From sequence record NC_073055.1: a DNA stretch of 44,488 nucleotides. One strand, given 5' to 3'. The notes beneath the pieces were generated by a model, which worked only from the letters and a program-made list of their open reading frames with translations, searched no databases and was not told the origin of the DNA. Below are positions 7,158 through 16,292 of this stretch, piece by piece (positions within the stretch are counted from its first letter, which is position 1; each line of letters starts with the position of its first letter). This DNA is from Escherichia phage vB_EcoD_Opt212. A program made the translations under genes and the position numbers.

Positions 7158-7240
7158 GCAACCAATGCGCGCAAAATTTAATCTTTTAGCGATATGGGAA
7201 TTCCCATATCGGCAACCAATACGCGCAAAATTTAATCTTT
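7158..7240. promoter_or_regulatory. 22-bp perfect palindrome CGATATGGGAATTCCCATATCG (7190..7211) flanked by two ~29-bp direct repeats
   Basis: direct reading; repeats GGCAACCAAT(G/A)CGCGCAAAATTTAATCTTT; second copy overlaps primase stop. Confidence 0.7.
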
Positions 7241-9496
7241 CAGGTCGTCATCGGTCGCAGAAAGCGTGATGGGTATATTCGTTTTGATGACTATATTCGA
7301 CGACCCATAGATGGCCCCGGTGTGCGGATCGGTATAAAAACCTAACACTCCGCGCTCAACCATATCGTCTATTGCCTTCGTAGATGTGCCACCTTTTGCC
7401 AATCCCGCCTGGCGGACAATTGCCGATTTGCTGAATCCGGTATGGTCCGGGTTATCTTCCATCAGTTTTTCCAGTGCCGCATAAAGCACTTTCTCTTTTT
7501 CGTTGCGCGGTCCTGCGGCATTCTCGTCCTTAACCGCGGCCTTGCCAGCCGCCTTCGCCTGTTCTATAGCGAACGGTGCCAGGGCGACCGGTACGAGGTA
7601 GAGAGTCTCGTCGCGTGGCGTGGAGGCAATCGGCTTGACGTCCCATCCGGCAACCACGTCGCCGAAGTCTGGCCCGGTGCTGGTGGACTGGTGCGCCTCG
7701 AACGCTTCTGACTTGCGGAGATCCACCTTCACCTTGCACTTGAGCAGGACGAAGCCACGCGGCGCTTGCTTGATGCCGTTACGTGCCTTTTCGTGATACA
7801 GGTTCAATTGGCCTGGCTGGTTGTCGTCCGGCTGTTCCAGGAAGAACGCAGAATCGACAGCGCCATGCAGCGCGCCGGACCCGCGGGGGGTTCTGCTGCC
7901 GTTTGCACCCTTCGCCGGGTGGTGGATGACGCCCGCACTGCCACCTGTATTTTCCGCGATGGCCTTCAGCGCTTTGACCACTTCACCCATATCGCTGGCG
8001 TTGTTCTCGTCGAACGGTTTAGCATCCGCGGACCGCAACGCAACAGTCTGGTTGAGTGAGTCGAACGCCACCAGGCCAACCGGTTCGCCGTTAGCGGTGC
8101 GGTTGATGAAGCTGATAACTTCACGCAAGCCGGATTTGCTGGTGATATCCCAGCCGCGTGATTGCAGATCGATAATGTGCAGCTTGTCCAGGTCGTGCTC
8201 ATATTTAATCTGCAATGCTTCTTTGCGCTGGTTAGAGGCTTCGCCACCTTCCGCGTCGAAATAGAAGCAATGAGACTGGACGACCTTCGCACCGCCGAAC
8301 GGAATACCAGCGGCAACCGCGCCCATCTGCCCCAGCACGTAGAACGATTTACCGATGTTCGACTCACCCGCCATATACCAGGTTGATTTAAAGTTAATCA
8401 ACCCCTCGATAATCGGGTCGTGCTTACTGAACAGCGCAACCGGCTCGTTATCCAGATCCGCATCGGTGCACACGCCGTATTCTTCGCCGTCGCCAACCGC
8501 ATCCACAATATGTTCATATAAGGATTCGACTTCCTCGTCGTCCAGCCCTGGGAGGATGGCGGCGATTTGCTTACGGGACATGTTGTGCGGCTCGACGTTC
8601 AGGTGGTCCGGTATCCCGATGAGACGTAGCGCCAGGTGCTGGTGTCTGTTCAGTTCCGAGCAACACTCGTTGCCGGTGTGCATACACTTGAAACGGATCT
8701 CGCCATCCTTAACCATGATAGCGGTGGACCCTTCACCACTGTGCAGGTGTTCGTTCGGGCATGGCACTTCATAACCACGACCGGACGACAGCGGTTCGAA
8801 TCCTGCCTGGAAGCACCAGTCCAGAATGCCGTCTGCCACTGCGTCGTCGCCCTGGGTAAGCTCGCGGCGTACTTCCTCTTTTTCCACCCCCAGCTTATCA
8901 GCCAGGCGAAGCAGACGACGGACGCGGGCACGTTTGCCGTAGTGACACTTAACAACCGATTGCTGGTGAGGCAGGTACATAAGGCGGTTTGTGTCTTTCG
9001 TGCAATCGTCGAAGTCCACATCTGACAGGCCCAGTTGGTGTAATAGTGCATACTGGACGCGGCCCAGGTCTTCCGCCGGTACAGGCTTGTCAGTGAGCAC
9101 CAGGAAACGAGCGCAACGCGTGCCGCCTTTCAGCGGGTGGCGGTCGCCGGTAGTGGTGTGGAAGACGTGCTCCAGTCCCGCGTCGATGAACGCCTTACGG
9201 CAGCGGCGCAGGGTGCGGGTGTCGGTGCGGTCAATATCAAAGAACAGGATCGAGCGGTCCACGGCACTGGTCTTGCGGCGTAAGCCGTCACGGGTATAAG
9301 CCACAATACCATCAGCCTTACGCTTGCGGCGCGCATACTCCGCTTTATCTTCCGTCTTGTTGATATGCACCGAGGATATTTCTTTCGCATCATTAATAAA
9401 TTCGAAAAACTCATCGGTGGTCATCTGGAAGTTTTCCGCCCTGGCTTTTTCGCCTTTTTTAGCGGGTCGTGTTACAGCGAATTTAATTAAGCTCAT
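7232..9496 (-). CDS. DNA primase/helicase (primase-polymerase-like N-terminus, P-loop NTPase, C-terminal wHTH)
   Basis: 754 aa; Walker A-like GESNIGKSF; Cys/His cluster; acidic FFDIDRTD segment. Confidence 0.75.
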   Translation of the reverse strand: MSLIKFAVTRPAKKGEKARAENFQMTTDEFFEFINDAKEISSVHINKTEDKAEYARRKRKADGIVAYTRDGLRRKTSAVDRSILFFDIDRTDTRTLRRCRKAFIDAGLEHVFHTTTGDRHPLKGGTRCARFLVLTDKPVPAEDLGRVQYALLHQLGLSDVDFDDCTKDTNRLMYLPHQQSVVKCHYGKRARVRRLLRLADKLGVEKEEVRRELTQGDDAVADGILDWCFQAGFEPLSSGRGYEVPCPNEHLHSGEGSTAIMVKDGEIRFKCMHTGNECCSELNRHQHLALRLIGIPDHLNVEPHNMSRKQIAAILPGLDDEEVESLYEHIVDAVGDGEEYGVCTDADLDNEPVALFSKHDPIIEGLINFKSTWYMAGESNIGKSFYVLGQMGAVAAGIPFGGAKVVQSHCFYFDAEGGEASNQRKEALQIKYEHDLDKLHIIDLQSRGWDITSKSGLREVISFINRTANGEPVGLVAFDSLNQTVALRSADAKPFDENNASDMGEVVKALKAIAENTGGSAGVIHHPAKGANGSRTPRGSGALHGAVDSAFFLEQPDDNQPGQLNLYHEKARNGIKQAPRGFVLLKCKVKVDLRKSEAFEAHQSTSTGPDFGDVVAGWDVKPIASTPRDETLYLVPVALAPFAIEQAKAAGKAAVKDENAAGPRNEKEKVLYAALEKLMEDNPDHTGFSKSAIVRQAGLAKGGTSTKAIDDMVERGVLGFYTDPHTGAIYGSSNIVIKTNIPITLSATDDDLKD

Positions 9497-9506
9497 TGCC
9501 GTGGCC

Positions 9507-9836
9507 TTACTTAGAAGTTTTATTATTGCGTACCCAGGAGCGCACTGTGCTCTGATTAATTCCGGTTAGCTCTGCAATCATCGCCCATGATTTGCCCTCG
9601 GCGCGCAAACGGATAACCTGTTTTTTGTATTCTTCCATTTCTTCATTGTGTTTTTGCAGCTTGCTTGCTGCCGTGCCGTTGAGCAATTCCAGCTTCGCGG
9701 TAAGCTCCTTCTCAGCACGCGATAATCTGGACACTTCAAATAACAGAGTATCCACCGCATTTGTGTAATACCAGGATTTACCCGCTTCGCCGCGGATTGC
9801 ATTAGATAACACTTCAATTGCTTCTTTGATATTCAT
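9507..9836 (-). CDS. small HTH DNA-binding protein (putative regulator)
   Basis: 109 aa; C-terminal HTH (GKSWAMIAELTGINQSTVRSWV); first gene of leftward operon. Confidence 0.6.
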   Translation of the reverse strand: MNIKEAIEVLSNAIRGEAGKSWYYTNAVDTLLFEVSRLSRAEKELTAKLELLNGTAASKLQKHNEEMEEYKKQVIRLRAEGKSWAMIAELTGINQSTVRSWVRNNKTSK

Positions 9837-10016: not shown

Positions 10017-10046
10017 TTGACACCCATCCTGCAACCAATCTATCAT
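10017..10046 (+). promoter_or_regulatory. sigma70-like promoter (TTGACA-N18-TATCAT)
   Basis: hexamers read directly; spacer contains TGCAACCAAT motif. Confidence 0.45.
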
Positions 10047-10242
10047 TCACTCCGTCGACAGGATGCAGGACGCAAACTGGAGAGGGGCAACGAAGGGGCC
10101 GGATCGAAGTGTCAGGATTCCCAACCGTGATTATATAACCAGGTCCACTACCCGAACGGGAGAACGCGTAACCTGGCAATATGTTAAGGCCACCGACGAA
10201 GTTAACTGCCGACACCTAAACTTAACCAATCGGAGATATACC

Positions 10243-10758
10243 ATGTTTGAGCAAATCGTAAACCTGATCACTCGCGGAGTAGTAGCACTGGAAACCATTG
10301 CAAAGCATTATGAAACCGTTGGCGCTGCCGTTGGTAAACAGGAAGATAAGAAGCCGTCTAAGGCCAAAAAAGAAGTTGTCGAAGATGACGACGATGAAGC
10401 TGAAGACGAAAAACCGGCTAAATCTAAAAAAACACCGGCGAAATGTAAGGCTAAAAAAGAAGTCGTAGAAGATGACGACGACGATGCCGAAGACGAAAAA
10501 CCGGCTAAGTCTAAAAAAGCACCGGCGAAAGGCAAAGGTAAGAAAGATGCCGATCCGCTGGCAGAGATGCGCGACGAAATCAAACAGTATGCCGCGATTA
10601 TTGCCGGTGGTGACGATGACGACGCGAACGACGAATTTGATGATCTGCTGGAAGCGTTCGAAATTAAATCCATCGCCAAGCTGGAAGACGACGACGTTGA
10701 AGACTTCCACAAAGATTTAAAAGAAATCGTCGAAACCTATTTCGAACTGGAAGATTAA
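10243..10758 (+). CDS. acidic/basic tandem-repeat protein
   Basis: 171 aa from ATG with GGAG RBS (track ORF extends upstream without RBS); two ~28-aa repeats KAKKEVVEDDDDEAEDEKPAKSKK; acidic C-terminal half. Confidence 0.6.
   Translation: MFEQIVNLITRGVVALETIAKHYETVGAAVGKQEDKKPSKAKKEVVEDDDDEAEDEKPAKSKKTPAKCKAKKEVVEDDDDDAEDEKPAKSKKAPAKGKGKKDADPLAEMRDEIKQYAAIIAGGDDDDANDEFDDLLEAFEIKSIAKLEDDDVEDFHKDLKEIVETYFELED
10357..10533 (+). repeat. tandem ~84-bp coding repeat (2 copies)
   Basis: near-identical DNA and protein repeats inside 10243..10758. Confidence 0.7.
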
Positions 10759-10806
10759 TGTATTCCGGCCCGCTAATCTGCGGGCCTATTTTTAGAGGAC
10801 GAGACA

Positions 10807-11058: not shown

Positions 11059-11237
11059 TGAAATTCTTCGTCATGGCAACTTGCCACGAATTAAACGATC
11101 ACACTTCTTTTATTGTTGAAAACACCAACGCAAGCAATTGCTTTGTGGACGCGCAAAATGAAGTTAAGCGCCGAGTCGAAAAAGCGGGCCTGGCTAATGT
11201 GAAATATGTAATTGTCCAGTTTACACGGGTGGAATAA
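11058..11237 (+). CDS. small hypothetical protein (59 aa)
   Basis: start overlaps previous stop; internal ATG of track ORF 10977..11237. Confidence 0.4.
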   Translation: MKFFVMATCHELNDHTSFIVENTNASNCFVDAQNEVKRRVEKAGLANVKYVIVQFTRVE

Positions 11238-12667
11238 TGGCGATTAAACCAAAACGTAAAACGCAATCCGGTAGCAACACGGAACACTCATTACTCGGGC
11301 CGTCCGGTGCTAAAAAATGGATGGGTTGCCCTGCCGCCCTGGTGGTGGAAAAAGATATCCCGAACGAATCCGGGCAAGCGGCGATTAACGGTACGAGTAT
11401 GCACACCGTATCAGAGGTCGTGCTAAACCGCATTATCGCCGGTGAGAAGCTGATAACCGCGAAGACGTATAAAGGGTGCTACGTCGAGAACGAAGGCAAG
11501 GGGCCAGTAAAGGCCCACCCGAAAGCACCGAAAGGCGGCGTACTGGTCAACGACGACATGGTGAAACAGTGCGACGCGTACATCGACCACTGGCGACCGC
11601 TCCTCGAAGTGGCGGAGTTTGTTCAGCTTGAGATGCGCGCCGATCTGACCCGCGTCCTTCACTCAGGCTTCGAGATCGACGGCAACCTGGTTAAGACGTT
11701 CGGTACTGCCGATATGGTTATGGTCATGAAGAAGACCGACGGCACGTACATGCTGATTGTTGGCGACCTGAAGACGGGACGACATAAGGTCGAGGCGAAA
11801 GAAAACAAACAGCTTATGTTGTACGCGCTCGGCCTGCTGCGCAAGCTGAAAACTATGTACGACATTACGACCGTGCGCCTGGTTATCTTCCAGCCGTATT
11901 GCGGCGGGGCGTCGGAGTGGGATATTTCGGTAGAAGCCCTGGAGATATTCGCGAAGTTTGCGTCCAAGCGTGCTATCGCCGCCCTGGAAGCGTACGCCCG
12001 CGGCAAAAAGGGACTCACCCGTGCCGACTTCAGACCGAGCGTTGATGCGTGTCAGTGGTGCCGATTTGCGGATCAGTGTAGCGCCCGCGCTAAGGCCGCA
12101 ATCGACACGATGACCCCACCAACGGCAACAGACGAAGACCTGGGCGACGACGTGAGTATTGCGACAGAGGAAGAATGCGCCAATCACGATCGCAATATGA
12201 CCCGCGAAGCCCGCAAAGCGGCACGACGTGCGAAGCGTGGTAAGAAAGAAGCGGCCCCAGGCGCTATGACCGCCGCAGAACTGCGCAAGGCATATGAAGG
12301 TTTAGACGCAATGCGCCAGCACATCAAGGCTATAGAGTCCGCGGTATTCAAGGCGGTTATGGCTGGCGAAGGCGAATCGCTGGGCCTCAAAATGGTTGCC
12401 GGTAAGGAAGGGATCCGCAAGTGGGCGGACGAAAGCGAAGTGATTGAAATCTTCACGAAGGCCCGGATCAAGCGCGATGTTATGTACAAAGAAACATTAC
12501 TCAGCCCTACTGATGCCGAGAAGGTACTGAAGGACGAGAAGCCGAAAGTGTGGGCAAAGTTGTGTGATAAAATAACGCGCGCACCAGCTAAACCGGTATT
12601 AGCACCCATCGACGACCCGCGCCCTGCGTGGTCTGTAGCTACTGACGAGGACTTAAGCAATGAATAA
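11237..12667 (+). CDS. PD-(D/E)XK nuclease, DUF2800-like with Cas4-type Cys cluster
   Basis: 476 aa; N-terminal HSLLGPSGAKKWMGCP; GDLKTG and QLMLYALG motifs; CQWCRFADQC cysteines. Confidence 0.75.
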   Translation: MAIKPKRKTQSGSNTEHSLLGPSGAKKWMGCPAALVVEKDIPNESGQAAINGTSMHTVSEVVLNRIIAGEKLITAKTYKGCYVENEGKGPVKAHPKAPKGGVLVNDDMVKQCDAYIDHWRPLLEVAEFVQLEMRADLTRVLHSGFEIDGNLVKTFGTADMVMVMKKTDGTYMLIVGDLKTGRHKVEAKENKQLMLYALGLLRKLKTMYDITTVRLVIFQPYCGGASEWDISVEALEIFAKFASKRAIAALEAYARGKKGLTRADFRPSVDACQWCRFADQCSARAKAAIDTMTPPTATDEDLGDDVSIATEEECANHDRNMTREARKAARRAKRGKKEAAPGAMTAAELRKAYEGLDAMRQHIKAIESAVFKAVMAGEGESLGLKMVAGKEGIRKWADESEVIEIFTKARIKRDVMYKETLLSPTDAEKVLKDEKPKVWAKLCDKITRAPAKPVLAPIDDPRPAWSVATDEDLSNE

Positions 12668-12927: not shown

Positions 12928-12992
12928 AGCAACCAAGCCGAACGGGGTGGCTCATAATAACCCCGATACATGTGAAAATGAGGAATTGGAAA

Positions 12993-13775
12993 ATGGCTAA
13001 AGTCAACCTGAAAAATGTGCGCGTATGTTTCCTTAAAATTTGGGAACGTGATACCCCTAAACAGGATGGACAAAAACCGGCATACCGTGCAGTGATTCTC
13101 CTTGATAAAGAAGATCCGCAGGTGGACAAAGTGGAAGCGGCAGCGCGCGCAGTGCTCACCGACAAGCTGAAATCCGAGAAGAATGCTGATAAGTGGATGG
13201 ACCGCCACTACGCCCAGGATTCTAAGGAATGCGCAGTTCGCGACGGTGACGAGCGCGACGAAGTAACCGAAGAATTCGAAGGCATGTTGTACATCAACGC
13301 CAAATCGTTCAAACAGCCGATCATTCAAACGTCACTCGGCGAGAAGCAGACGGAACAAGGTCTGACCGTAGAAGGCGACGAGATCGAAGGCCAGGAGATC
13401 TACTCCGGTTGTTATTGCAATGTGTCCCTGGATATTTGGGCGTGGAACAATACCAACGGCAAGGGTCTCGGGGCTGGCTTGCTGGGTCTGCGATTCCGTG
13501 AAGACGGCGAAGCCTTCGGAGGTGGCGGGTCTTCTTGCTCCGATGAAGACCTGGACAACGACGACGAAGACGAAGCACCGCGCAAGTCCAAAAAGTCAAA
13601 ACGTCGTGATGACGATGATGAAGATGACAAGCCGCGCAAGTCCAAGAAATCCAAGCGCCGCGATGACGACGATGAGGAAGATGAAAAACCTCGCAAACGC
13701 CGCAAGTCCCGCGATGACGAAGATGAGGACGAAGACGACGAAGACGAAGCACCACGTAAACGTCGCCGCCGTTAA
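12993..13775 (+). CDS. DUF2815-like ssDNA-binding protein with charged repeat tail
   Basis: ATG with AGGAA RBS; N-terminus MAKVNLKNVRVCF; C-terminal repeats PRKSKKSKRRDDDDE. Confidence 0.65.
   Translation: MAKVNLKNVRVCFLKIWERDTPKQDGQKPAYRAVILLDKEDPQVDKVEAAARAVLTDKLKSEKNADKWMDRHYAQDSKECAVRDGDERDEVTEEFEGMLYINAKSFKQPIIQTSLGEKQTEQGLTVEGDEIEGQEIYSGCYCNVSLDIWAWNNTNGKGLGAGLLGLRFREDGEAFGGGGSSCSDEDLDNDDEDEAPRKSKKSKRRDDDDEDDKPRKSKKSKRRDDDDEEDEKPRKRRKSRDDEDEDEDDEDEAPRKRRRR
13562..13772 (+). repeat. tandem coding repeats (acidic/basic modules, 3 copies)
   Basis: repeated DDDDEDDKPRKSKKSKRR units at protein and DNA level. Confidence 0.6.
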
Positions 13776-13794
13776 GGGCAAAGCCCACTATTCA

Positions 13795-13818
13795 AGCCCG
13801 CTTAATGCGGGCTTTTTA
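13795..13818 (+). terminator. rho-independent terminator
   Basis: stem AGCCCGC/GCGGGCT followed by T5. Confidence 0.6.
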
Positions 13819-13833
13819 ACGGGACAACGAAAA

Positions 13834-14004
13834 ATGCATATTAAAGCCAGCGAAGTAAAAGTCGGAATGCAAGTATGGTCCAAGCTACTGGGGGAATATT
13901 TCACAGTTGCCGAGATTCGCAACAATGGAGAAGAGATCGCCCTGTCCGACGGCATCTTCTCCATGATCGGCAGCGCTGACGCCGTAGTGAGGATAAAGCA
14001 ATGA
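13834..14004 (+). CDS. small hypothetical protein (56 aa)
   Basis: ATG after terminator; ATGA overlap with DNA polymerase start. Confidence 0.4.
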   Translation: MHIKASEVKVGMQVWSKLLGEYFTVAEIRNNGEEIALSDGIFSMIGSADAVVRIKQ

Positions 14005-16292
14005 AAGACTTCGAACGTCTGTTTCTCGACACAGAGACATTTAGCGGGGTGGACCTGAAGAAAGTTGGGGCGTACGCCTACGCAGAGCACCCAACCACCG
14101 AGATTATGATTTGCACATACGCCATCGACGAGGGCCGCGTGCAGACATGGGATTGCACTGAATCCCCCACAATGCCGCGTGAACTGCGCAAGGCGCTCCG
14201 CCATGTTTCCCGCAAGAAAGCAAAAATAGTGATGGCTAACGGCCTCCTGTTTGACCGCCTGGTTATTCGCGAGAAGTGGGGTATTGACCTGCCGGTAAGC
14301 CAGATCGAAGACACCATGATTATGGCCTTTCGCCACGCGCTGCCCGGTAGTCTCGACATGCAATGCCAGGTGCTGGGCGTTGACGCAGAACACGCGAAGG
14401 ATAAGGCTGGCAAGGCGCTGATCAAACGCTTCTGTAAGCCAACCCCTAAGACTTACAAAATCCGCCGCTACACTCGCGAGACTCACCCTGAAGAATGGGC
14501 CAAATTTCTGCGATATGCCGCGCTGGATATTATCGCGATGCGTGAGGTCTACTGGCGCATACCGGACTGGGGTAATACTCCGAAGGAAGATGAAATCCTG
14601 CTTATCGACCAGTTGATCAACGACCGCGGCTTCTATGTGGACGTTGACCTGGCGAACGCCGCGATCAAAGCGGTGCAGGCGCATAAGGAAGAATTGAAGG
14701 AGGAAGCCTGGGAGCGATTTGGCGGTAAACTGACAGGCAATGACTTCCTGCCAATCCTGCGTGATATCGCCCCGGCGTTCACAATCCACAACGCGCAGAA
14801 ATCCACACTTAACGACCTGCTTGAAGACCCGGACTTCCCCGACGAAGGCAAAGCGCTTATCGAAATGCGCCTCGGTGCGTCATCAACGGCATCGACTAAG
14901 TACAATCCGCTAGTTAACGGCTTATCCGCAGATGGTCGCCGCCGTGGGTGTCTTCAGTATGGCGGCGCAAAGCGCACGCTGCGCTGGGCGGGTAAAGGCT
15001 TCCAGCCTCAAAACCTGGCACGCGGCGAGTATAGCGACGATCACGAAGGGAAGATTAAGCGCCGCGAAGGCGAGAGCGACGTTGCTTTTTGGGTCCGGTC
15101 GCACATGCTCACCAACGGCATCAATTCCCTGTTACGCGGGACCGCGCACTGGGCGTATGACATATCTAAGCTAACAGCCTCTACCGTTCGCGGGTGCATT
15201 ATCCCGGCTAAGGGCAAGAAGTTTGTCGTAGCGGACTACTCCAACGTGGAAGGGCGTGGACTTGCCTGGATCGCTGGCGAGAAAACCGCGCTAATGGTGT
15301 TTAAGGCCGGTCGTGATATCTATTGTGAGACTGCCGGTAAGATGTTCGGCCTGGACCCGGACTACATTAAAGCTAACCGCAAGGACTTACGCCAGATCGG
15401 TAAGGCGTGCGAATTGGGGCTGGGCTATGGTGGCGGCGTCGCGGCGTTCTTGCAGTTCGCTAAAAACCTGGGCCTCGACCTTTACGCGATGGCGGACGTC
15501 ATGAAGGGCACATTCCCCGATCACATTTGGGCAGCGGCTAAACGGGGTTATGAGTACGCCCGTATTAACGAAGCGAAACGCCCACCGAAGCCCGGCAAGA
15601 AAGACGAGCGCCCAACATACATACTGCCTAAAAACGTTTGGCTGACGTGCGACGCGATCAAACGTATGTGGCGTGAGGCTCACCCGAAGACGGTAGCCTT
15701 TTGGGCCGAGCTTGAGGACGCGGTGTTGTGTGCAATCCGCAATCCGGGCAAAGCATACTGGGCGGGCGCGAACGTTCGCCCGGACGGTAGAAAAGCGCTC
15801 AAGATTGTCCGTACGAAGGCGAAGCACGACCCAACCTTTGACGAGGAGCGCGACGACCCGAACGCCGCGGGGTGGTGGTTGAAAATTGAGTTGCCGTCGG
15901 GGCGCATCATGAGCTACCCAGGCATCGCGCTGTCTGTCACTACCGAGATTGACGAGGACACCGGCAAGAAACGCACCAGCACACGCATCAAATACCAGGG
16001 CGAGAATCAGACGACGCGCCAGTGGGGTTTCCAGTACACCTACGGCGGCAAATTGACGGAGAACATCGTACAGGCGTTGTGCCGCGATATTCTCGCATGG
16101 TCCATGCCAGGCGTTGAAGCTGCGGGGTATGAGATCGTCCTGTCAGTACACGACGAATTGATCACAGAAGTGCCGGACACCGACGACTACACGACCGAGG
16201 AGCTTTGCGCGCTGATGTGCGACCTGCCTATTTGGGCGAAAGGTTTCCCACTTGCCGCAGAGGGCGATTGCATGTACAGATACAGGAAGTAA
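14001..16292 (+). CDS. DNA polymerase, family A, with 3'-5' exonuclease domain
   Basis: 763 aa; exo motif FLDTETFS; pol motif B RQIGKACELGLGYGG; motif C LSVHDEL. Confidence 0.9.
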   Translation: MKDFERLFLDTETFSGVDLKKVGAYAYAEHPTTEIMICTYAIDEGRVQTWDCTESPTMPRELRKALRHVSRKKAKIVMANGLLFDRLVIREKWGIDLPVSQIEDTMIMAFRHALPGSLDMQCQVLGVDAEHAKDKAGKALIKRFCKPTPKTYKIRRYTRETHPEEWAKFLRYAALDIIAMREVYWRIPDWGNTPKEDEILLIDQLINDRGFYVDVDLANAAIKAVQAHKEELKEEAWERFGGKLTGNDFLPILRDIAPAFTIHNAQKSTLNDLLEDPDFPDEGKALIEMRLGASSTASTKYNPLVNGLSADGRRRGCLQYGGAKRTLRWAGKGFQPQNLARGEYSDDHEGKIKRREGESDVAFWVRSHMLTNGINSLLRGTAHWAYDISKLTASTVRGCIIPAKGKKFVVADYSNVEGRGLAWIAGEKTALMVFKAGRDIYCETAGKMFGLDPDYIKANRKDLRQIGKACELGLGYGGGVAAFLQFAKNLGLDLYAMADVMKGTFPDHIWAAAKRGYEYARINEAKRPPKPGKKDERPTYILPKNVWLTCDAIKRMWREAHPKTVAFWAELEDAVLCAIRNPGKAYWAGANVRPDGRKALKIVRTKAKHDPTFDEERDDPNAAGWWLKIELPSGRIMSYPGIALSVTTEIDEDTGKKRTSTRIKYQGENQTTRQWGFQYTYGGKLTENIVQALCRDILAWSMPGVEAAGYEIVLSVHDELITEVPDTDDYTTEELCALMCDLPIWAKGFPLAAEGDCMYRYRK

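Follow-up and report, generated by a model that had tools for sequence, protein, structure and literature searches.

The protein that binds single-stranded DNA (the SSB) in Escherichia phage vB_EcoD_Opt212 ends in a long alternation of acidic and basic residues, and a second protein of the same phage, 171 amino acids (aa) in length, carries charged repeats of a similar kind. An earlier note, made from the letters of the window alone (the window being the whole of record NC_073055.1, 44,488 nucleotides (nt)), had called the SSB DUF2815-like, had seen three tandem units at its end, and had taken their resemblance to the repeats encoded at 10243..10758 as a sign of either a common interaction partner or repeat expansion by replication slippage. 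This raises the question of what the tail is, and whether its likeness to the other protein tells us anything about what the two do. We find that it is a variant of the disordered C-terminal tail already known in SSBs, a selectively maintained and recombination-prone repeat and not a new system. Specifically, positions 13542-13772 probably encode the disordered C-terminal tail of an SSB of the Enc34/T7 gp2.5 type, in which the short acidic tail of the family has been elaborated into a mixed-charge repeat.

The label given to the gene is right, and the charged repeats are real and were placed at the correct coordinates and in the correct frame. The protein matches the PF10991 (DUF2815) profile over residues 3-193 with 109.8 bits (cut-off 26), it matches PHROG 112, the Gp2.5-like SSB/annealing family, and by sequence it matches the PDB entries 4klk, 4jg2 and 5odj. 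A Foldseek search with its structural model recovers 5odl (3e-12), 4klk (1.6e-12) and 1je5 (1.5e-6), i.e. the T7-type oligonucleotide/oligosaccharide-binding (OB) fold. The gene runs from the ATG at 12993 to the stop codon at 13773-13775; homologues begin MAKVNLK, and the list of open reading frames (ORFs) had started it at a GTG at 12972. Among 15 distinct Dhillonvirus relatives the OB core has a ratio of non-synonymous to synonymous differences (pN/pS) of 0.06, with a pS of 0.26, and aligned tail codons have a pN/pS of 0.11, with a pS of 0.30, a result that supports the SSB frame over the ORFs that overlap it.

In the tail, residues 184-260, acidic and basic blocks take turns, four of each; it reads DEDLDNDD-EDEAPRKSKKSKRRDDDD-EDDKPRKSKKSKRRDDDD-EEDEKPRKRRKSRDDEDEDEDD-EDEAPRKRRRR (coordinates of all features are given in Table 1). 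Repeats therefore exist, but "three tandem units" does not describe them well, since there are two near-identical 18-aa units, a degenerate third and a terminal half-unit, which together give the four basic blocks. In the AlphaFold2 (AF2) model the predicted local distance difference test score (pLDDT) of residues 180-260 is 46-55, and the sole secondary structure there is a four-residue helix at 184-187. The fraction of charged residues is 0.83, the net charge is -8 (-0.10 per residue, with 28 Lys/Arg), and the charge-segregation parameter kappa is 0.53, compared with 0.10 ± 0.05 in shuffled tails, none of 300 of which reached the observed value. High charge fraction, near-neutral net charge, segregation and predicted disorder together are those of a mixed-charge disordered region (a polyampholyte). 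Given the predicted disorder, the tail can be seen as the unstructured C-terminal segment of the family at about three times its usual length, and since it has four acidic blocks but ends in basic residues it is a variant of that acidic segment. The final residues, RKRRRR, are neither acidic nor hydrophobic-ended, so that the canonical SSB docking tip was not found at this C-terminus.

The tail is thus strongly charge-segregated, and as its pN/pS indicates it is under purifying selection. Alignment of the units at the DNA and protein levels shows where this selection acts. Between units 1 and 2, 12 of the 54 nt are different (22%; 76-78% identity), which changes eight codons synonymously and two non-synonymously, and the 54-nt period, which Tandem Repeats Finder (TRF) did not detect in the SSB gene, was found by a second repeat search. 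Because the differences are mostly synonymous, the constraint is on the protein and not on the DNA, and together with the low pN/pS of the tail this marks the repeats as old duplications kept by selection on their amino acids. The same observation removes an idea that repeated DNA within replication genes, here on a purine-rich strand, naturally brings to mind, namely that the repeats are iterons or some other cis-acting DNA signal embedded in coding sequence, as the lambda origin is in gene O. To this idea we give practically no weight: the copies differ mainly at synonymous positions, the pS of the tail is no lower than that of the core, the number of copies is not fixed, and the two repeat-bearing genes share only 61-68% DNA identity. 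An origin-iteron reading was accordingly rejected, as the copies are not conserved as DNA beyond what the protein needs and vary in number.

That number varies considerably. The SSB tails of close relatives have one, two, three or four basic blocks, and the insertions and deletions that separate them are of whole acidic-plus-basic units, in frame. IMG/VR relatives and cluster representatives have two, three or four. In an evenly spaced sample of 55 GenBank Dhillonviruses, where block counts were inferred from the length of the matching region, about four blocks were present in 45, three in eight, two in one (EP23) and one in one (phage welsh). SECphi4 and SECphi18, both working phages of the laboratory, have three and four blocks, respectively. 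The SSB of welsh, 202 aa long and ending ...DEDLDNDDEDEAPRKRRRR, lacks every internal unit, and its one-block tail is the exact product of recombination across a 20-nt direct repeat whose copies in Opt212 lie at 13560-13579 and 13734-13753. Head-to-tail units, copy-number polymorphism and indels bounded by direct repeats are what one sees in an in-frame variable-number tandem repeat, and it is shown that slippage or recombination between direct repeats rich in GAY/GAR codons adds and removes units in frame. The proposal of repeat expansion is thereby borne out, for the second protein as well, where the charged linker varies from 21 to 85 aa.

From the SSB of welsh it follows that the internal units are dispensable for viability. 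It would be wrong, however, to say that the repeats are simply absent in some close relatives: this holds for the internal units (in welsh and EP23), but not for the acidic block and the terminal basic block. The minimal form, one acidic block plus a terminal oligo-basic block (DDEDEAPRKRRRR), is contained in every complete Dhillonvirus tail that was read, the SSBs of Jerseyvirus and Kagunavirus as a rule have this minimal layout too (...EDDEEDETPRRERRRNR), and relatives down to about 45% identity terminate in RPRRRRR.

We next consider the DUF2815 SSB family at large, for which an unbiased phmmer search that used only the OB core as its query gave 2168 relatives among cluster representatives; the best 148 scorable ones were analysed. 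Their median tail length is 23 aa. Purely acidic tails, with no basic block, are present in 131, of which 94 have acidic last six residues and 94 are hydrophobic-ended, while at least one basic block was found in 17 of the 148, at least two in 10, and a basic C-terminus in 10. Mixed-charge tails therefore account for about 7-11% of cluster representatives in this sample of the closest relatives. A second search, made with a word index that favours proteins having charged words in common, showed that acid/basic repeat tails reach at least 10 units in lineages down to about 30% identity, and that many of these distant tails end in canonical-looking tips (DDDDLPF, DDEIPF, DDDVA). Three very distant metagenomic phages, L035, L036 and L037, have SSB tails of five to nine near-perfect acid/basic units with the tips DDDDLPF, DEDVA and DDDVA. 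A first scan for related loci had been swamped by low-complexity patterns, and a rerun with the core only added just two loci. The mixed-charge repeat is thus an elaboration of the linker that recurs in a minority of lineages. Rarer still is the basic end, a feature of the Dhillonvirus/Guernseyvirinae neighbourhood. In the searchable literature we found neither the mixed-charge repeat tail nor the basic end described.

For repeats that come and go in a disordered tail, one may also consider that the internal units have no function, and are products of slippage that are merely tolerated. Their dispensability in welsh and EP23 agrees with such neutral expansion, as do the hypervariable linker of the 171-aa protein and the frameshifted SSB entries found in databases, which show that the tract is error-prone. 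One would not then expect, however, a pN/pS of 0.11 in the tail despite a pS of 0.30, units that have diverged synonymously while their amino acids were kept, a four-block form that predominates, or similar repeat tails in lineages of 30-60% identity. We therefore regard neutral expansion as an unlikely account of the internal units.

The frameshifted entries are two database SSBs, P0005 (phage vB_EcoS-22664B1) and P0008, which within or just before the tail shift into the frame of an alternative 194-aa ORF (13420-14004, plus strand) that is open across the tail region, the SSB stop codon and the terminator, and that is in frame with a downstream 56-aa gene. Sequencing errors or repeat slippage, and not programmed frameshifting, are most likely responsible. 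Minus-strand and other plus-frame ORFs over 13321-14004 were dismissed as by-products of stop-free runs of GAN/AAR codons. In addition, 34 nt of acidic-block coding sequence (13712-13745) match the Erwinia jumbo phages pEa_SNUABM_16 and pEa_SNUABM_28 at 97% (three records), almost certainly a chance match between GAN-rich sequences coding for acidic runs.

As for the second protein, it has a nearly invariant N-terminal helix, a disordered mixed-charge linker and an acidic C-terminal domain of three helices (residues 105-122, 126-138 and 149-167; AF2 pLDDT 72-92). The linker, like the tail, is charge-segregated (kappa 0.41, compared with 0.10-0.12 ± 0.05 in shuffles, 0 of 300 reaching the observed value), and it contains two 87-nt units that are about 90% identical, with six codons differing synonymously and three non-synonymously. 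Its length range of 21-85 aa was observed across 106 homologue clusters, and it is an indel-prone spacer, less constrained than the parts that flank it (pN/pS of 0.22, against 0.11 for the helix and 0.06 for the C-terminal domain).

These are the only two ORFs of the 44.5-kb genome in which a stretch of 40 aa holds at least 26 charged residues of both signs. Aligned with each other, tail and linker have a Smith-Waterman score of 126, compared with 73 ± 8 for residue shuffles and 92 ± 7 for shuffles that preserve the order of positive, negative and neutral residues, and none of 1000 shuffles of either kind reached 126. The resemblance noticed earlier thus exceeds both composition and charge pattern, and the excess stems from a common E-D-E-K-P-x-K-S-K-K junction. 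As DNA, the two genes show a likeness of only 61-68%, over 44 nt, and encode the common motif in different codons, so there is no sign of recent DNA exchange, and exchange between the two genes was rejected on these grounds. If tail and linker had evolved together or exchanged sequence, tails should resemble the linkers of their own genomes, yet no within-genome concordance above the between-genome level was observed in 5-7 lineages (permutation 18/120 to 499/5040); the tail of the unrelated metagenomic phage L035 scores 191 against the Opt212 linker, compared with 126 for the Opt212 tail itself. Length, too, shows no co-variation between the two proteins across 28 genomes (rho 0.29, p 0.13; Fisher p 0.62), a borderline trend in the first 13 (rho 0.54, p 0.057) having vanished at 28. 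It thus appears that the resemblance is generic to a grammar of acid run, x-Pro and basic run, and, as far as sequence comparison goes, it is not evidence for a shared partner or for exchange between the genes.

One may nevertheless argue that the E-D-E-K-P-x-K-S-K-K junctions are multi-copy linear motifs read by a single phage replisome or host factor. Both genes belong to the replication module, the SSB tail is under purifying selection, the motif similarity is above composition and charge pattern, and the junction grammar recurs in distant lineages (e.g. EDEKPAKKK in both proteins of L035). Against this, neither concordance within genomes nor length co-variation was found; moreover, the linker of the 171-aa family can be as short as 21 aa and is differently composed in Guernseyvirinae, and the welsh SSB is without all internal units. 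The common interaction partner that the earlier note suggested is therefore not supported, and we consider it improbable.

How might the tail work? In the SSBs of the same family, T7 gp2.5 and Enc34 ORF6 (1JE5, 5ODJ/5ODL), the OB fold is directly followed by an unstructured tail rich in Asp and Glu, and the genomic setting compared, DUF2800 nuclease, SSB and family-A polymerase, is the same. Enc34 ORF6 without its acidic tail binds double-stranded DNA (dsDNA) about as well as single-stranded DNA (ssDNA), whereas the full-length protein shifted ssDNA only (PMC5686142). The tail of T7 gp2.5 and ssDNA are rivals for the binding surface (Marintcheva et al. 2008, as cited in PMC5686142), and this tail has been implicated in contacts with the polymerase and the primase-helicase (PMC5686142, PMC13402713). 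By analogy with these proteins, we infer that in Opt212 the acidic blocks would keep the classical job of the family, folding back on the basic ssDNA cleft and so favouring ssDNA over dsDNA, and would also make contact with partners in the replisome. The basic blocks, interleaved as well as terminal, would neutralise the acidic ones in part, and might add electrostatic contacts, either with DNA or with acidic blocks on SSB molecules next to them. Up to three extra basic-plus-acidic units sit between the first acidic block and the terminal basic block, and their number would tune auto-inhibition and cooperativity without being essential. The linker of the 171-aa protein would then be a separate, much less constrained disordered spacer that is built on the same acid-run / x-Pro / basic-run grammar.

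The differences from the known tails are considerable. The tail of Opt212 is about 77 aa long, compared with 26-29 aa in T7 gp2.5 and Enc34 ORF6, and unlike those acidic tails it has interleaved basic blocks, is built of repeats and has a net charge of -8; it ends in APRKRRRR, whereas they end acidic with a hydrophobic or aromatic residue. The SSB of E. coli has the same layout of an OB core leading into a disordered low-complexity linker, and the Opt212 protein is without its acidic, hydrophobic-ended tip. The E. coli linker is rich in Gly, Gln and Pro, and uncharged. With respect to the repeat itself, variable-number in-frame coding repeats of other systems are likewise arranged head to tail, polymorphic among near-identical genomes and subject to deletion bounded by direct repeats; unlike fast-evolving contingency repeats, however, the units of Opt212 are old (22% of nucleotides differ, mostly synonymously) and selectively maintained.

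Several observations weigh against this assignment of the tail to the classical mechanism. A basic C-terminus is the opposite of an acidic, hydrophobic-ended docking tip, so the classical mechanism may not transfer, and the conserved basic C-terminus is the least-explained feature of the tail. At least one viable isolate, welsh, does without the internal units, and any tuning role may thus be small. The similarity of tail and linker still exceeds shuffles that preserve the charge pattern, so that the two could still have in common a short motif that a specific reader recognises. Finally, in the available part of bioRxiv 2022.08.27.505566, the mutations by which SECphi4 and SECphi18 escape Retron-Eco8 are in the OB core of the SSB (T56P) or upstream of its gene, and not in the tail. 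For that reason the escape data, as far as that source presents them, were set aside as a handle on the tail.

A different possibility is that the blocky tail drives self-association of the SSB on ssDNA, as a scaffold for cooperativity or condensation that could co-recruit the 171-aa protein. The very high charge fraction, the segregation and the predicted disorder would suit such a role, as would the retention of four blocks in 45 of the 55 sampled Dhillonviruses. E. coli SSB is described as phase-separating, with its linker tied to condensation and cooperativity, in PMC7584906, PMC12143593 and bioRxiv 2022.01.17.476650, and mixed-charge domains of Arg/Asp dipeptide repeats are presented in bioRxiv 771592 as acting in nuclear speckle condensation in a length-dependent manner. 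The Arg/Asp domains of nuclear-speckle proteins have in common with the tail a blocky alternation of acidic and basic runs, predicted disorder and a very high fraction of charged residues. The charge-patterned C-terminal domain of Caulobacter RNase E is another mixed-charge analogue. Their context is unrelated, however, and what they share with the tail would be a possible way of working and not membership in a class; the case for a condensate role in this SSB family is wholly one of analogy, and variants with one and two blocks are viable. A scaffold of this kind, which overlaps with the inferred part of the tail mechanism set out above, seems to us rather doubtful. Doubtful to a greater degree is that APRKRRRR is a partner-docking tip of reversed polarity that binds an acidic surface (the three-helix domain of the 171-aa protein, with a net charge of -19, being a candidate), while the repeats cluster the SSB, and perhaps the 171-aa protein, electrostatically into a replication compartment. 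If true, this would be a second, undescribed way for SSBs to recruit partners.

An elaborated acidic tail, as we read it, is of interest since the C-terminal tails of SSBs are recruitment hubs for replication, recombination and repair proteins, and a basic end, if functional, would mean that partner recruitment or self-regulation departs from the T7 paradigm. The clade with oligo-arginine ends includes model coliphages (the BASEL Dhillonviruses, SECphi4 and SECphi18), and culturable natural variants with one to four blocks make the effect of unit number directly testable. The near-identical SSB of SECphi4 triggers Retron-Eco8, as does T7 gp2.5, according to bioRxiv 2022.08.27.505566, which would indirectly support a preference of the Opt212 protein for ssDNA; with the Dhillonvirus SSB being a known trigger, tail variants could be screened for effects on sensing. 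The distant phages L035-L037 offer natural material for probing the role of the repeats as linkers.

Opt212 is a Dhillonvirus (an HK578-like siphovirus), to which about 150-180 GenBank records are related at a DNA identity of 85-97%. The window is its complete genome of 44,488 bp, and both repeat-bearing genes lie in the replication module (Table 1). The description of both genes as early is inferred from this position only.

Table 1. Features of the SSB gene, the 171-aa protein gene and the surrounding replication module of Opt212 (positions in the window)
Feature	Position	Strand	Evidence or remark
Primase-helicase	7232-9496	-	
Small helix-turn-helix protein	9507-9836	-	
171-aa protein gene, PHROG 3127	10243..10758	+	PHROG 3127 at 1e-52; first gene of rightward replication operon
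N-terminal helix, aa 1-27	10243..10323	+	AF2 helix 2-27; nearly invariant; pN/pS 0.11
Disordered mixed-charge linker, aa 28-104	10324..10554	+	pLDDT mostly <50; pN/pS 0.22; kappa 0.41
87-nt repeat unit 1 (KAKKEVVEDDDDEAEDEKPAKSKKTPAKC)	10360..10446	+	TRF period 87, 2.0 copies, 90% matches
87-nt repeat unit 2 (KAKKEVVEDDDDDAEDEKPAKSKKAPAKG)	10447..10533	+	length of single-unit relatives 142-143 aa
Acidic three-helix C-terminal domain, aa 105-171	10555..10755	+	net charge -19; pN/pS 0.06; no significant PDB fold match
Intrinsic-terminator-like hairpin and T-run, 3' of 171-aa gene	10767..10795	+	terminator scan; fold -17.2 kcal/mol, z -3.2
Two small ORFs		+	between 171-aa gene and nuclease
DUF2800 PD-(D/E)XK nuclease	11237-12667	+	
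80-aa ORF		+	between nuclease and SSB
SSB gene, Enc34 / T7 gp2.5 type, 260 aa and stop	12993..13775	+	PF10991, PHROG 112, PDB/Foldseek matches
OB-fold core, aa 1-175	12993..13517	+	AF2 block-mean pLDDT 92-98 over residues 1-170; confident fold over residues 1-172
Gly/Ser hinge GGGGSSCS, aa 176-183	13518..13541	+	pLDDT <50 from residue 178; conserved throughout the Dhillonvirus relatives
First acidic block DEDLDNDD, aa 184-191	13542..13565	+	kept in every variant (15-tail alignment, phage welsh)
20-nt exact direct repeat, left copy GACGACGAAGACGAAGCACC	13560..13579	+	longest exact repeat in 13500-13775
Repeat unit 1, EDEAPRKSKKSKRRDDDD, 18 aa/54 nt	13566..13619	+	repeat search, family D8
Repeat unit 2, EDDKPRKSKKSKRRDDDD, 18 aa/54 nt	13620..13673	+	family D8; absent in three-block relatives L009, L014, L029
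Degenerate unit 3, EEDEKPRKRRKSRDDEDEDEDD	13674..13739	+	EP23/L010 lacks both this unit and unit 2
20-nt exact direct repeat, right copy	13734..13753	+	174 nt downstream of left copy
Terminal unit EDEAPRKRRRR	13740..13772	+	basic end in every complete Dhillonvirus tail read
Intrinsic-terminator-like hairpin and U-run, 3' of SSB gene	13794..13817	+	RNA fold -21.4 kcal/mol, z -3.4
56-aa ORF	13834-14004	+	between SSB and polymerase
Family-A DNA polymerase	14001-16292	+	

The 171-aa protein belongs to a conserved family whose homologue in Guernseyvirinae is the syntenic gene that opens the replication operon (hhalign 99.5%), and there the linker is Pro/Glu-rich with blocks of the KPKRGRK type. In L035 hhalign supports the C-terminal domain only (93%), and by this profile comparison the domain probably recurs there; membership of L036 and L037 in the family, at a probability of 1-6%, was rejected as unsupported. 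The family occurs in Dhillonvirus and Guernseyvirinae, in about 640 GenBank phages (and at our loci L015-L018 and L035), and some records label it "13.88 kDa late protein". We found no Pfam or NCBIfam match for the protein and no relative in the PDB by sequence, and a Foldseek search of the PDB gave no match below E = 0.4; weak matches to three-helix bundles, such as the Red-beta C-terminal domain (E = 8.9), were not taken as evidence. Its structural neighbours in BFVD are uncharacterised phage proteins only. The family would be a good target for functional work.

In GenBank the Opt212 version of this protein has 231 aa, from an ATG at 10063 (P0121), and nearly all homologue clusters start with MFEQ, which corresponds to the ATG at 10243, with GGAG 7 nt upstream; the start of the longer form was probably called wrongly. 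A strong sigma-70-like promoter match (TTGACA, 18 nt, TATCAT; 11/12) lies at 10017-10046. In the records of phages jat and bob a "repeat_region" is annotated over the gene.

Of the two terminator-like hairpins, the consensus terminator scan caught the one 3' of the 171-aa gene and missed the one 3' of the SSB gene. The stop codon of the 56-aa ORF overlaps the start codon of the polymerase (14001-14004), which would allow translational coupling. In the supplementary table of bioRxiv 2022.08.27.505566, the gene of this ORF is listed among defence-escape mutants of both SECphi4 and SECphi18, among them a frameshift at E21 and intergenic changes immediately upstream, and these rows share a block of the table with DNA-polymerase mutants. 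The replication module is kept in L035, L036 and L037, with its divergent primase, small regulator, first gene, DUF2800 nuclease, DUF2815 SSB and polymerase. Near-identical Dhillonvirus genomes have also been deposited under odd hosts, as Campylobacter phage A144, Acinetobacter phage NJ01 and Sodalis phage SO-1, and these records may represent mislabelled or contaminant isolates.

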